Below, piece after piece: positions 11,059-13,976 of a DNA stretch of 19,718 bases; the stretch's first letter is position 1; every line of letters begins with the position of its first letter. Origin of the DNA: Thermovirgaceae bacterium (GTDB lineage Bacteria; Synergistota; Synergistia; Synergistales; Thermovirgaceae); assembly GCA_046542505.1 (NCBI GenBank), contig JBKHBH010000032.1:1-19718 (forward strand). The letters are read 5' to 3'. The position numbers and the translations under genes are program-made. Under the pieces are notes generated by a model. That model did not search any database, was not told the origin of the DNA, and saw nothing but the letters and a program-made list of their open reading frames with translations.

Positions 11059-12105
11059 TCAGACAGTACCGGGAGGTATTTTGATCCGGCCCTCACCTTT
11101 CTGGAACAGGCCTATCTTTGCCGACCTGGTGAACCCCCGGGATCTGCAAAAAGCAAGCATAGCATCCGCCTGTTTTGCTTCTACTGCCAGCAAAAGGCCT
11201 CCCGAGGTCTGGGCGTCGAACAGAACGTCCGCCCTTTCCGGCGGAATCGTTTCGAGTCTGTCAACACGGCCCTCGTAAAGCTCCCTGTTCCGATAGCTTC
11301 CGGCGGGAACAAGGCCGATGGCGGCCTTTTCAGCCGCCCCAGGCAGAAGCGGAAGGGACGGAGCATCAAGAATCACGTCCAGTTCCTTTTCCGCCAGCAT
11401 GTCCAGAAGGTGTCCCGCAAAACCAAAACCTGTGACATCGGTACAGGCCGAAACGGCCCCGTACAAATCCTCCGGGAGGTGTCGAGGCAGGTCGTTCAGT
11501 GCCGTCATGGCCTTCACGGCGGCTTCCACCTCGCCGGGTTCGTCCATTTCGGCCTGGAGAGCCGTAATGATAATCCCCGTCCCCAGGGGCTTCGTCAGGA
11601 TCAGGGCATCACCGGGCCTGGCGCCCGTGACGCGCCAGATCCTGTCACGGTCAACCTCACCGTACACGGTGAGGCCATACTTCGGTTCTTCGTCCTCCAC
11701 GCTGTGCCCCCCGGCGAGTACCGCCCCCGCCGCAAGCACCCGTTCCTGTCCCCCCTTGAGGATATCCCGCAGGATCTCCACGGGCTGGCAATTCACGGGA
11801 AAACCCGCCACATTCAGGGCCACCACGGGAGTCCCGCCCATGGCGAAGACATCGCTCAGGGCGTTGGCCGCCGCGATCTGCCCGAAGACATACGGATCGT
11901 CCACCACGGGGGTGATGAAATCAAGGGTGAGAATGCCGGCCCGTTTTTCGTCAAGAATCCAGAGCGCCGCATCCTCGCCGTGCTCCCACCCGGCAAGAAG
12001 CCTGTCCCCGGCCGGAAGCACCAGGTCTTTCAGTATGGTCTCAAGGTCCGCCGGACCTATTTTCGCCGCTCACCCACTGGCATGAGAAAGTTCGGTCAAA
12101 CGCAT
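11059..12105 (-). CDS. selD: Selenide, water dikinase (selenophosphate synthetase), selenocysteine-containing; Sec12 = UGA at 12072-12070
   Basis: From ATG 12105 (AGGTGA RBS) the frame reads MRLTELSHASG-U-AAKIGPADL into the tracked ORF. Motifs DFITPVVDDP, AANALSDVFAMGG, LTKPLGTG, TDVTGFG and DAQTSGGLL. Confidence 0.96.
12044..12058 (-). promoter_or_regulatory. Bacterial SECIS element of selD
   Basis: Hairpin AGGUCC-GGC-GGACCU starts 11 nt after the UGA; its loop begins with G. Confidence 0.8.
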
Positions 12106-12218: not shown

Positions 12219-12440
12219 TTACTTTTTAAGTATGACCCTGAACCCGCCTTCGGGCAATTCCTCGGCTTCCACGGCCCAGCTTCTGCTTCCGGCGAAACGG
12301 CCCACGTTCATTCGTGACGTCATGGTGTCCACCAGAACGTGAATTTCGCCGGAAGAAACCTTTTCGATGGCTTTTTTCGTCTCCAACACAGGCTGGGGGC
12401 ACGAAAGCCCCCTAGCATCGACGATGATCGGTTCCGGCAT
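12219..12440 (-). CDS. TusA/SirA/YedF-family sulfur/selenium carrier protein
   Basis: 73 aa with DARGLSCPQP (CPxP); AAGGGTGA RBS; lies between yedE and selD. Confidence 0.9.
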   Translation of the reverse strand: MPEPIIVDARGLSCPQPVLETKKAIEKVSSGEIHVLVDTMTSRMNVGRFAGSRSWAVEAEELPEGGFRVILKK

Positions 12441-12469: not shown

Positions 12470-13561
12470 CTAAATCTTTTCGCGCATCAGAAACCCAACG
12501 ACAAGACAGAAAGCAAGACCGACAAAAACCCCGGCCGGGCCGTAGGCCCCAGGACCCGCCGGAGAACTTGCCATGCTGAAGTTATGGGCGATCCCGGCAC
12601 CAACGAGCATGCCGAGGATAAAGACTGCCGCGTCACCGTCACCTTCGCCGCTCATGATGAACTGCCGTCCTGGACATCCGCCCGCCAGGGTGAAGGCAAG
12701 ACCCGACAGGACCATTCCCATGGCGTTCCAGAGCACGTTCGTGTGGGCCACTGGCTGATCCTCGAAACCGAACCTGAACTGCCCCAGGATGAGATTGGTC
12801 ACCAGGGCTGCGGCAAGAAAGGCCATGACGCCGTTGAACAAATGTGCGTCCCTGAGCATGATCAGGTCGCGAAGGGCCCCCACAGTGCAAAAGCGGCTGC
12901 GCTGGGCCCACCAGCCGACGAGAAGTCCCACGGCAAGGGCGATGGCCACGGGGGCCGCCATGGCGCCAGGCCCCTTTTCGGAAAAGAATATTGCCGAAGT
13001 GCCCTCGGGGCCGAAACTCGGCTTTAGGATAACGAAAGCCAAAACCGTTACTGCCACGGCCGGCATGATGTACCCGGCGGCCTTTTTCACCGGATAGCTG
13101 CGGCCCAGGCTGAATCCGTTCCAGAGGAAAACTATGCCGATAGCGATTCCCGCCACCAGCCCGATGACACCCGGCAGGGCGTTCAGGTCGCCGGCACTCA
13201 GGCGGATGTAGGCCCGCCAGGGGCACCCGAGGAAGACCAGGGCCCCGATCATGGCGAACATGCCCAGAAAAAACCTGATGACAGGGGAGGAGCCTGTCCT
13301 TGGCCTGTACTCCCCGTAGGCAATGGAAGCGACGAATGACCCCAAAATGAACCCTGCAAGTTCCGGTCGAAGATACTGAACCACGCTAGCCCTGTGAAGC
13401 CCCAGGGCCCCGGCGATATCCCTGGCGAAGCAGGCGACACAGATCCCCATGTTTCCGGGGTTCCCCCAGTACGTCAAAAGCGGCGCGAGGATCCCGACGG
13501 CTGTCCCCGTCAGTATGGGCCCCATGCGGGACATGAGAAGACGGTTCAATGGCTGAAACAC
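12470..13561 (-). CDS. yedE: YedE-family putative selenium transporter (seleno-YedE type)
   Basis: GNPGNMGICVACFARDIAGALGLH, QYLRPE, LGCPWR, QRSRFC and GGCPGRQ; multiple TM helices. GTG 13561 follows AAAGGTGGGAG by 6 nt; ATG 13534 and 13525 lack an RBS. Confidence 0.9.
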   Translation of the reverse strand: MFQPLNRLLMSRMGPILTGTAVGILAPLLTYWGNPGNMGICVACFARDIAGALGLHRASVVQYLRPELAGFILGSFVASIAYGEYRPRTGSSPVIRFFLGMFAMIGALVFLGCPWRAYIRLSAGDLNALPGVIGLVAGIAIGIVFLWNGFSLGRSYPVKKAAGYIMPAVAVTVLAFVILKPSFGPEGTSAIFFSEKGPGAMAAPVAIALAVGLLVGWWAQRSRFCTVGALRDLIMLRDAHLFNGVMAFLAAALVTNLILGQFRFGFEDQPVAHTNVLWNAMGMVLSGLAFTLAGGCPGRQFIMSGEGDGDAAVFILGMLVGAGIAHNFSMASSPAGPGAYGPAGVFVGLAFCLVVGFLMREKI

Positions 13562-13565
13562 TAAA

Positions 13566-13703
13566 AACTCCCACCTTTCCCGAAGAGTGAATATGAAACG
13601 GTCCACCGGGCGGCGCACAAGGGCACCGCCGCATCACAAACAACATGCGGGCACGCTCCAAAGGTGCCGGTTCCCGTGGCGGCACTCCGGGAAAGCAGGA
13701 GTT
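13566..13703 (-). promoter_or_regulatory. Structured 5' leader domain able to sequester the yedE RBS
   Basis: 13703-13683 pairs with 13589-13566 (21 bp) and encloses three abutting hairpins at 13610-13668. Confidence 0.7.
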
Positions 13704-13732
13704 CAGTTTGTCTGCCAAAAGGATTTGACGAT

Positions 13733-13903
13733 TCAGAGAAAGAGAGGGGAAAGGCTGAAGGAGTCCCCGCCCGAACCGCCTTGCTCCAATGGGGCAAAAG
13801 CATTGTCCCGTCGACCCGGAGTACCGGAAGCGCTGTCGCACCCCCAGGCGCGTGAATGCGGAACCCGCATTCCATCCGGGCCTCACCGGTATCTGCGTAC
13901 CAT
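13733..13903 (-). CDS. Putative selenocysteine leader peptide: MVRRYR-U..., 6 aa if UGA terminates, 56 aa on Sec readthrough
   Basis: AAGGAGG, 8 nt, ATG 13903; UGA at codon 7 (13885-13883); SECIS-like hairpin follows; next stop is UGA 13735-13733. Confidence 0.6.
13854..13872 (-). promoter_or_regulatory. SECIS-like hairpin in the leader uORF
   Basis: GAAUGCGG-GUU-CCGCAUUC begins 10 nt after the UGA; G-U starts the loop; lower stem CCCGG/CUGGG is possible. Confidence 0.65.
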
Positions 13904-13944
13904 GGGCGAGTCCTCCTTTCTTGTGTGAATGAAAAATCAGGAAC

Positions 13945-13976
13945 ATGATACCACACAGTTCAAGGCTTTTTGACAA
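13945..13976 (-). promoter_or_regulatory. Putative promoter of the selenium operon
   Basis: Extended -10 TG-G-TATCAT (13953-13945); TTGTCA upstream at a non-optimal 20-nt spacing. Confidence 0.5.

Follow-up and report, generated by a model that had tools for sequence, protein, structure and literature searches.

The leader peptides trpL, hisL, pheL, and thrL are transcription attenuators of amino acid operons, and other leaders read out the fate of a translating ribosome by different means: prfB senses RF2 via a frameshift at an autoregulatory UGA, tnaC senses tryptophan via peptide-mediated arrest and Rho, with the stalled ribosome blocking the Rho loading site, and in translational attenuation of the ermC/cat type a ribosome paused in the leader open reading frame (ORF) opens a masked Shine-Dalgarno (SD) sequence. 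Here we analyze a leader located upstream of the yedE-tusA-selD selenium operon on the minus strand of contig JBKHBH010000032.1 (assembly GCA_046542505.1) of a Thermovirgaceae bacterium from the phylum Synergistota; the whole stretch of 19,718 nucleotides (nt) is called the window in the following. In this leader a short ORF ends at a UGA codon that is followed by a hairpin of the selenocysteine insertion sequence (SECIS) type. Two described selenium systems are close to it. The accessible text of 10.64898/2026.03.03.709296 describes a SECIS-like element in the 5' untranslated region of E. coli selAB, 3 nt from the selA SD, which serves as an operator with neither a UGA nor a leader ORF, and according to the accessible part of Matson et al. 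(2013; PMC3892789) selenium controls transcription of fdhF(Sec) from Treponema primitia by translational coupling. The bacterial control of selenium uptake and selenocysteine (Sec) synthesis is largely unknown, and the yedE comparative-genomics paper (PMC5322559), in its accessible part, considers the selenium regulatory network as not understood.

Comparison of leader sequences makes it somewhat probable that the yedE-tusA-selD operon is under ribosome-mediated control of the attenuator type, with the UGA as control codon and with negative feedback. The parts of this proposal differ in strength: it appears highly likely that the leader with its UGA and SECIS-type hairpin is the sensor proper and, given such a sensor, negative feedback is the direction that we consider clearly probable. 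In its general form, toward which we lean to a modest degree, the proposal is that of an attenuator for the 21st amino acid, widespread in at least three phyla, in which a race between SelB/Sec-tRNA(Sec) and RF2 at a leader UGA, doubled in some lineages, would set the choice between terminator and antiterminator (Anaerolineae class), or between a masked and an open SD (Synergistota), and so exert negative feedback on selenium uptake and selenophosphate synthesis.

The UGA and hairpin of the yedE leader and their conservation

The window leader (L001) contains the SD sequence GAAAGGAGGA (13911..13920; this and all following features are on the minus strand), which is kept in leader alignments and is separated by 8 nt (ACTCGCCC) from the ATG of the leader ORF (13883..13903). 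This ORF, ATG GTA CGC AGA TAC CGG TGA, encodes MVRRYR and its codon 7 is the UGA (13885-13883), the proposed sensed codon. After a spacer of 10 nt (13873..13882) follows the hairpin GAATGCGG/GTT/CCGCATTC (13854..13872; in RNA GAAUGCGG-GUU-CCGCAUUC), which has a stem of 8 bp and a loop that begins 18 nt 3' of the UGA. Behind the UGA the frame stays open for 49 codons (13733..13882) until the stop TGA at 13735-13733. A preliminary description of this DNA had given the positions of ribosome binding site, upstream ORF, UGA, spacer, and hairpin, and every described detail matches the minus-strand sequence; the read-through peptide of 56 residues claimed there is confirmed by translation. The leader ORF is in frame with yedE, and the four stops between the leader ATG and the yedE start are all TGA (13885-13883, 13735-13733, 13705-13703, and 13636-13634); no SECIS-like hairpin was seen after the last three of them, for which no systematic test was made.

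The bSECISearch criteria for a bacterial SECIS are a hairpin about 10–11 nt after the UGA and an apical loop about 16–37 nt from it. At 10 and 18 nt, respectively, the leader hairpin lies within these ranges; its small apical loop GUU has a G in the first two bases, and the UGA is in frame within an ORF of the translated type, with the SD 8 nt before the ATG, as is likewise the case in the 64 distinct leaders collected (see below). The native SECIS elements of the same genome, those of grdB1, grdB2, and selD, have the loop GGC; the stem comprises 8 bp and starts 10 nt after the UGA in grdB1 and grdB2, and comprises 6 bp and starts 11 nt after the UGA in selD. The leader hairpin thus has the grdB geometry, with a loop that is G-initiated but reads GUU instead of the native GGC, and the near-identity with the selD geometry noted in the preliminary description holds. 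Apical loops in relatives are GUC, GGU, GGUU, AGUU, AGGU, GGUG, and AGUG. When covariation was computed on 26 distinct stretches from UGA to hairpin, 97% of the cells of the stem were paired and all 8 pairs were compensatory, with changes on both sides, which was equaled in 0 of 500 shuffles, and slid control windows were paired to only 28–66%. By its geometry and covariation the leader hairpin is of the SECIS type. It would bind SelB and direct Sec insertion, for which the open frame behind the UGA and the presence of SelB and tRNA-SeC are indirect evidence. In the Rfam search no family reached its gathering score in the window; a Xanthine match on the opposite strand with an E value of 1.9 was rejected as chance-level.

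YedE orthologues are present in 31 of 41 related genomes, and the succession of SD, start codon, 5–8 codons, UGA, about 10 nt, and hairpin was found in 16 of 25 usable upstream regions of relatives. A strict scan of species-representative genomes detected the element in 18 of 77 usable yedE loci, compared to 2 of 77 when TAA/TAG stops were used and 3 of 77 on the reverse complement, and the matches include Chloroflexota and one Phycisphaerae record whose stem letters are quite different. With 80 metagenome loci added, there were 142 distinct leaders and about 41 carriers, the control rates of the relaxed scan being 15/142 and 10/142. In the class of one Chloroflexota carrier this YedE is found in 67 of 251 genomes, and in the Anaerolineae-class set the element occurs in 30 of 35 usable leaders, compared to 2 of 35 with TAA/TAG stops. 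In total, 64 distinct leaders of yedE (or selD) were collected from Synergistota, Chloroflexota, and the one Phycisphaerae record. L224, L226, L229, and L236 had been dropped as doubtful before this count, and L145 was missed by the motif look-up for it, though the element is present there; from six extra loci obtained in a relaxed scan for GGU loops only L145 and L113 were accepted, as probable.

A covariance model (R1), derived from the 26 UGA-to-hairpin stretches, finds the window leader as its sole match in the 2.14-Mb genome (40.6 bits, E 3.5e-5), and among 6 genomic copies of the hairpin core pattern only the leader copy follows a short ORF ended by UGA. Within the order, R1 has matches in 16 of 151 genomes, in two families only (11/18 and 4/5). 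Two weak R1 matches, L208 (G011:C135:1142-1179) and L213 (G015:C6:100431-100468), were rejected as false positives; both are long perfect hairpins with a GCGGGUUCCGC apex before a livH-like permease, without a UGA-containing upstream ORF, and are probably unrelated. There is one element per genome and it is always located before yedE, except in genome G014, where yedE has been lost: here (L211, G014:C19, element at locus positions 1501-1539) the leader is followed by a remnant of the yedE start and then by selD(Sec), so the leader sensor would control selD directly. SelB was detected in all 5 further element-bearing genomes that were tested. A check for conservation upstream of yedE had been proposed in the preliminary description, and its outcome is positive: ribosome binding site, short ORF, UGA, and hairpin are kept, the stem covaries, and the same arrangement persists upstream of selD where yedE is lost. 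Judged by sequence comparison, this is a real, conserved regulatory leader.

In the 64 distinct leaders the UGA is preceded by 5–13 codons, with an Arg among the last three residues in most of them, and the leader peptides vary (MVRRYR, MANRSR, MILWYHRRT, MKKPKR, and others). Behind the UGA, each of the 64 leaders has a frame without stop for at least 22 codons. In the other two frames a stop occurs before codon 20 in 47 of 128 cases, or in 22 of 103 among those that are open for 12 codons. The read-through frame is closed by TGA in 33, TAA in 20, and TAG in 11 leaders. Tandem UGA-NNN-UGA arrangements exist in 4 of the 64 leaders, belonging to two leader types of the Anaerolineae class (L228, L230, L235, and L242); they read UGA AUU UGA or UGA GUU UGA, the hairpin is canonically spaced from the second UGA, and the frame behind is open. 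The Aminiphilus-type leaders (L017-L019 and L176, identical metagenome copies included) are short. Their UGA is located just 61–73 nt 5' of yedE, the hairpin is imperfect with GUGCAC at its apex, and the read-through frame has 104–108 codons and passes over SD and start of yedE in a frame other than that of yedE. A variant leader peptide in L055 and L239 ends with ...I-P-P-P before the UGA, that is, with a polyproline run.

Putative expression platforms downstream of the UGA

Several segments of the window leader are complementary to each other. Strand 0 (ACCGGUGAGGCCCGGAUGGAA, 13871..13891) spans the UGA, is a partner of strand 1a, and would lie under a ribosome that has the UGA in its A site. 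Region 1 (13768..13827) lies inside the read-through frame and contains 1a (CGGUACUCCGGG, 13826-13815) and 1b (GGAGCAAGGCGGUUCGG, 13787-13771), both complementary to strand 2 (AACUGAACUCCUGCUUUCCCGGAGUGCC, 13681..13708). Strand 2 is the anti-SD, the partner of the yedE SD both in the partition function and in the minimum free energy (MFE) structure. Strand 3 (13559..13589) comprises the yedE SD region (CACUCUUCGGGAAAGGUGGGAGUU) and the GTG start (13561-13559), the SD GGAAAGGTGG itself being located about 290 nt 3' of the leader hairpin. In the proposed mechanism a ribosome would initiate at the strong leader SD, read six codons, and arrive at the UGA, where SelB with Sec-tRNA(Sec), recruited by the hairpin 10 nt downstream, would compete with RF2. 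When Sec-tRNA(Sec) is plentiful, Sec would be inserted, the 49 further codons would be translated, and the ribosome would cross region 1 (13827-13768), apart from which strand 2 (13708-13681) has no strong alternative partner; with region 1 occupied, strand 2 would pair with the yedE SD and expression of yedE and the downstream genes would go down. When Sec-tRNA(Sec) is scarce, the ribosome would terminate or linger at the UGA with strand 0 covered, region 1 would be free to capture strand 2, the yedE SD would be open, and the operon would be on. In Anaerolineae-class relatives the same sensor would drive a choice between terminator and antiterminator, a held ribosome causing antitermination and a decoding ribosome over strand 1 allowing the terminator to form. 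Of this mechanism, we infer that SelB binds the hairpin, that Sec is inserted, in which direction control operates, and that release by RF2 at the leader UGA is slow enough to matter.

No terminator-like site was found on the minus strand between 13400 and 14300, and a second terminator scan also gave none there. The yedE SD is masked by a helix of about 20 bp with 13708-13681 and its probability of being unpaired in the free leader is 0.25 (partition function, with the same helix in the MFE structure), from which SD masking, and not termination, is a plausible output in the window. In the own-genus set, consisting of L001, L117, and L118, RNAduplex gives energies of -23.7, -24.0, and -14.6 kcal/mol for 0:1, of -41.3, -39.8, and -34.6 kcal/mol for 1:2, and of -34.1, -28.7, and -32.7 kcal/mol for 2:3, in this order. 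Against shuffles, z-scores for 1:2 are -2.9, -3.7, and -3.1, and the window 2:3 duplex has -3.3. The 12-bp 1a core of the 1:2 duplex is perfect in L001 and L117 and is kept as pairing with different letters in L118, the species at 82% YedE identity. Strand 0 makes a basal helix GCCCGGA:UCCGGGU in MFE folds of the window, and folding of an L001 transcript that stops short of the SD joins strand 2 to region 1, except when a ribosome occupies the last part of the read-through frame. Among Synergistota leaders in general, RNAduplex chains consist of long interrupted duplexes and the results are mixed, with mean z-scores of -1.60 (2:3), -1.29 (1:2), and -1.61 (0:1).

The end of the read-through frame is a pyrimidine-rich tract (CCUUCAGCCUUUCCCCUCUCUUUCUC, 13736..13761) that is complementary to SD-type sequences. 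In the MFE structure of the window it pairs with the leader's own SD region, and in the consensus fold of Thermovirgaceae-type leaders the equivalent tract (CCAUCCUUUCC) pairs with the yedE SD. In the alignment of the latter leaders (A3, columns 4-28 with 140-164), leader SD and start pair over about 20 bp with the conserved CCGGAAGGYCGCCGGAAC...UCCUGA that ends the read-through frame, and this pairing is invariant. With the leader SD paired in this way, translation of the leader might be restricted to the first ribosomes.

A terminator-type platform is evident in Anaerolineae-class leaders. A strong intrinsic terminator (11–15 bp and a U-run) is present in 22 of the 30 listed leaders, two of these 22 being rows later deemed doubtful, and 20 terminator-bearing leaders were used in the strand-pairing test. 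In these 20 the terminator starts 19–46 nt (mostly 23–37 nt) after the read-through stop. A segment located 33 to 14 nt before the read-through stop, strand 1, is a near-copy of the terminator 3' strand and pairs with the terminator 5' strand and loop at -25 to -32 kcal/mol, with z < -2 in 12 of 20 leaders. When the helices were scored on an alignment of 15 sequences (A2), the antiterminator (16 pairs, terminator-loop columns included) was 91.5% paired with 7 compensatory pairs, and the terminator (13 pairs) was 93% paired with 6 compensatory pairs. Strand 0 corresponds here to the last leader codons (-17 to -4 nt from the UGA), and the conserved leader ends ...H-R-R-T (CAC CGC CGC ACC) are accounted for by RNA pairing. 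In folds of shortened transcripts, a ribosome mask on the UGA of L165 switches strand 1 from strand 0 to the terminator 5' strand; in L078 the antiterminator is obtained only with the mask at the read-through stop, and in L092 it is formed in all three states. The comparison of these leaders supports well that the Anaerolineae-class leader may be regarded as a trp-style attenuator with UGA as control codon, and the likeness to amino acid attenuators suggested in the preliminary description is borne out in that an ORF ended by UGA is wired to a covarying terminator and antiterminator. Ribosome-mediated attenuation with the Sec codon as control codon is in its details plausible for the window and better supported in the terminator-bearing relatives.

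Direction of control and alternative explanations

Several results weigh against ribosome-mediated negative feedback. About 100 of the 142 distinct yedE leaders do not carry the element, and the occurrence of TGA as first stop in all homologous leaders is partly due to construction, as the scans selected for TGA. In the shortened L001 fold, a ribosome at the UGA makes no difference to the formation of the 1:2 helix, strand 0 being a weak competitor there; in the full window leader at equilibrium, the unpaired probability of the SD is 0.25 in all three mask states, that is, no switch is seen, and forcing the 1a:2b helix costs 8.6 kcal/mol. Antiterminator pairing is not significant in 8 of the 20 terminator-bearing Anaerolineae-class leaders, and on alignment A2 the 0:1 helix (14 pairs) is just 73% paired. 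As Rho is present, a tnaC-like or polarity mechanism is possible. To the same side belong the leaders whose anti-SD position, SD accessibility, or stop codon position fits the opposite direction of control.

In that opposite case the same Sec-sensing leader would let selenium supply switch yedE-tusA-selD on, in that a ribosome at the read-through end melts or covers the anti-SD or the pyrimidine tract, or blocks a Rho loading site; we consider this rather unlikely, and the evidence that bears on it is divided. It would match the Sec codon inside selD itself, and in the accessible part of PMC3892789 selenium raises the full-length fdhF(Sec) mRNA of T. primitia via translation past the UGA. In most Synergistota leaders the distance from the read-through stop to the anti-SD partner ranges from a few to about 30 nt, and in L012 and the Thermovirgaceae-type leaders it is about 3–12 nt. 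When a mask was extended up to the read-through stop, SD accessibility was raised by at least 0.1 in 6 of 20 leaders, with changes from 0.33 to 0.49 in L009, from 0.18 to 0.36 in L011, from 0.17 to 0.27 in L012, from 0.26 to 0.52 in L078, and from 0.30 to 0.48 in L092. A C-rich, G-poor tract is found at or just past the read-through stop, a rho gene is encoded in the genome, and in L055 and L239 the read-through stop overlaps the yedE start, which is typical of positive coupling. On the other hand, the stop lies 19–46 nt before the terminator stem in the 20 tested leaders, mostly too far for blocking by a ribosome, and the window stop lies 27 nt before strand 2. The covarying antiterminator strand inside the read-through frame predicts termination upon read-through, and in Aminiphilus-type leaders the read-through frame passes the start of yedE in a different frame. 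By analogy only, the archaeon M. maripaludis also speaks for induction by depletion, as its yedE mRNA is raised 5.3 log2-fold when selenium is depleted, according to the accessible part of PMC11097638. The equilibrium calculations of SD accessibility did not separate the two control directions. We prefer the direction in which plentiful Sec would turn the operon off because of the wiring of the terminator-bearing leaders, because region 1 is located within the read-through frame, and because the out-of-frame passage of the Aminiphilus-type frame across the yedE SD and start fits occlusion on read-through.

An operator similar to that of selAB, at which SelB/Sec-tRNA(Sec) alters folding or stability of the leader without decoding of the UGA and for which the short ORF is incidental, seems improbable. 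The SECIS geometry of the hairpin would suit it, and a precedent is given by selAB (10.64898/2026.03.03.709296, in its accessible part, citing Thanbichler and Boeck 2002), but the hairpin is not adjacent to the yedE SD from which it is separated by about 290 nt, and its conservation goes together with that of a strong SD, of a start codon, and of a UGA that is in frame and at the distance of a SECIS. The frame that is open behind the UGA in every one of the 64 leaders and the existence of tandem UGAs are further points in favor of decoding.

A small selenoprotein gene (56 residues with Sec as residue 7), co-transcribed with yedE and having a function of its own, is very improbable. It would account for an in-frame UGA, a SECIS-type hairpin, and an open frame behind, but a Pfam search of the read-through products gave no family, the products range from 22 to more than 100 residues and resemble each other only in the parts that encode the RNA hairpin or pairing strands, and some leader frames run out of frame into yedE. 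No conserved protein was found around the Sec, Cys-codon homologues not having been searched for. This explanation was rejected because of the lack of a Pfam family and the restriction of likeness to encoded RNA elements, which agrees with the preliminary description, where a peptide without recognizable domain had been taken to fit a regulatory role.

A chance coincidence of short ORF and hairpin in this long and GC-rich intergenic region can practically be dismissed. GC-rich DNA does yield many open frames and hairpins, as the relaxed-scan control rates also indicate, but the arrangement is conserved in three phyla with covariation of the hairpin, is the single genome-wide R1 match, and exceeds its controls in the strict scan.

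Genomic context and comparison with known systems

The operon consists of yedE (12470..13561, minus strand; PF04143, E 6.5e-13; orthologues at 51–92% identity), encoding a membrane protein of the YeeE/YedE family that is a candidate selenium transporter, a tusA/yedF-like gene (12219..12440, minus strand; PF01206, E 1.5e-17), and the selenophosphate synthetase gene selD (11059..12105, minus strand; PF00586 and PF02769). The latter has a Sec codon at 12072-12070 (codon 12), followed by its own SECIS on the same strand (stem 12058-12053, loop GGC, stem 12049-12044). A rubrerythrin/ferritin-like gene (PF02915, PF13668; 10469-10978, minus strand) is located 3' of selD on the same strand, the upstream neighbor of the leader is an unrelated metallophosphoesterase gene, and the remaining genes of the window are not selenium-related. 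For Sec decoding, family searches detected tRNA-SeC, selB, grdA with an in-frame TGA, and two grdB genes in the genome; they were used instead of a genome-wide scan for TGA plus hairpin, which was useless for finding selenoprotein genes as it returned 1447 candidates.

A candidate promoter element, an extended -10-like box (TGGTATCAT, 13945..13953, minus strand), was recognized by eye, and its position predicts a transcript start at about 13938, 5' of the leader ORF. Similar TGnTAT(C/T)(A/C)T-like boxes were seen by eye at equal distance 5' of the leader ORF in relatives. Most Synergistota leaders have a TGn-extended -10 box about 40 nt before the leader ATG and no recognizable -35, and a consensus promoter scan gave 0 sites, without any -35/-10 pair.

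No description of a Sec-UGA leader was found in the full-text literature, subscription-journal papers being outside the scope of this search, nor do the accessible parts of the yedE comparative-genomics paper (PMC5322559), of a 2026 selenoproteome review (PMC13188914), and of PMC1794560 contain one. The preliminary description had known of no report of this arrangement; the literature likewise gave none within this scope, and the Sec-UGA leader is probably undescribed. If the proposed control exists, it would provide a direct, protein-free ribosomal read-out of the Sec-tRNA(Sec) supply and extend classical attenuation to a recoded stop codon. The leader gives independent genetic support for a joint action of YedE, TusA/YedF, and SelD in selenium acquisition. 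It might serve as a natural selenium-responsive switch for reporters and genetic-code work, and competition between SelB and RF2 would become testable in a regulatory setting. Pipelines that search for selenoproteins would meet true sites of UGA plus SECIS that are regulatory and are not selenoprotein genes.

With the leader-peptide attenuators of amino acid operons, the leaders share an SD-driven short leader ORF that contains the proposed sensed codon and, in some, tandem control codons; a ribosome position that picks between exclusive helices is predicted from the pairing strands of the Anaerolineae-class leaders, in which the other two features occur as well. A short leader ORF with its own SD and a control codon is present in the window as well, whereas an intrinsic terminator that separates leader ORF and first gene is found in the Anaerolineae-class relatives and not in the window, where the output would consist of SD masking. 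In contrast to amino acid attenuators, the control codon is a stop recoded by SelB and the SECIS, and Sec insertion would compete with release by RF2 in place of a waiting for charged tRNA. The SECIS hairpin would belong to the sensor, what is sensed is a product made on its tRNA, and the operon serves the uptake and activation of an element and not the synthesis of an amino acid skeleton.

The E. coli selAB leader, as far as the accessible text describes it, resembles the present one in having a SECIS-type hairpin in the leader of a selenium gene, which here too would report SelB/Sec-tRNA(Sec) and give feedback; it differs in that the window hairpin stands behind the UGA of a leader ORF and about 290 nt upstream of the yedE SD, and not next to the SD as in selAB. 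For fdhF(Sec) of T. primitia, within the same limits of the source, ribosome fate at a Sec UGA sets the extent of transcription, as is proposed here, but there the UGA is catalytic and inside the selenoprotein gene, and selenium raises the mRNA, whereas here a dedicated leader ORF precedes other genes. An early in-frame UGA as sensor, and a ribosome dwell time that alters downstream expression, are likewise features of prfB and tnaC, neither of which employs SelB, SECIS, or Sec-tRNA. Translational attenuation of the ermC/cat type corresponds to the kind of output proposed for the window, with the difference that the signal there is an antibiotic-stalled ribosome and not the decoding of a recoded stop. 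In none of the known systems compared here does a dedicated leader ORF occur together with a Sec UGA, a SECIS, and an expression platform.

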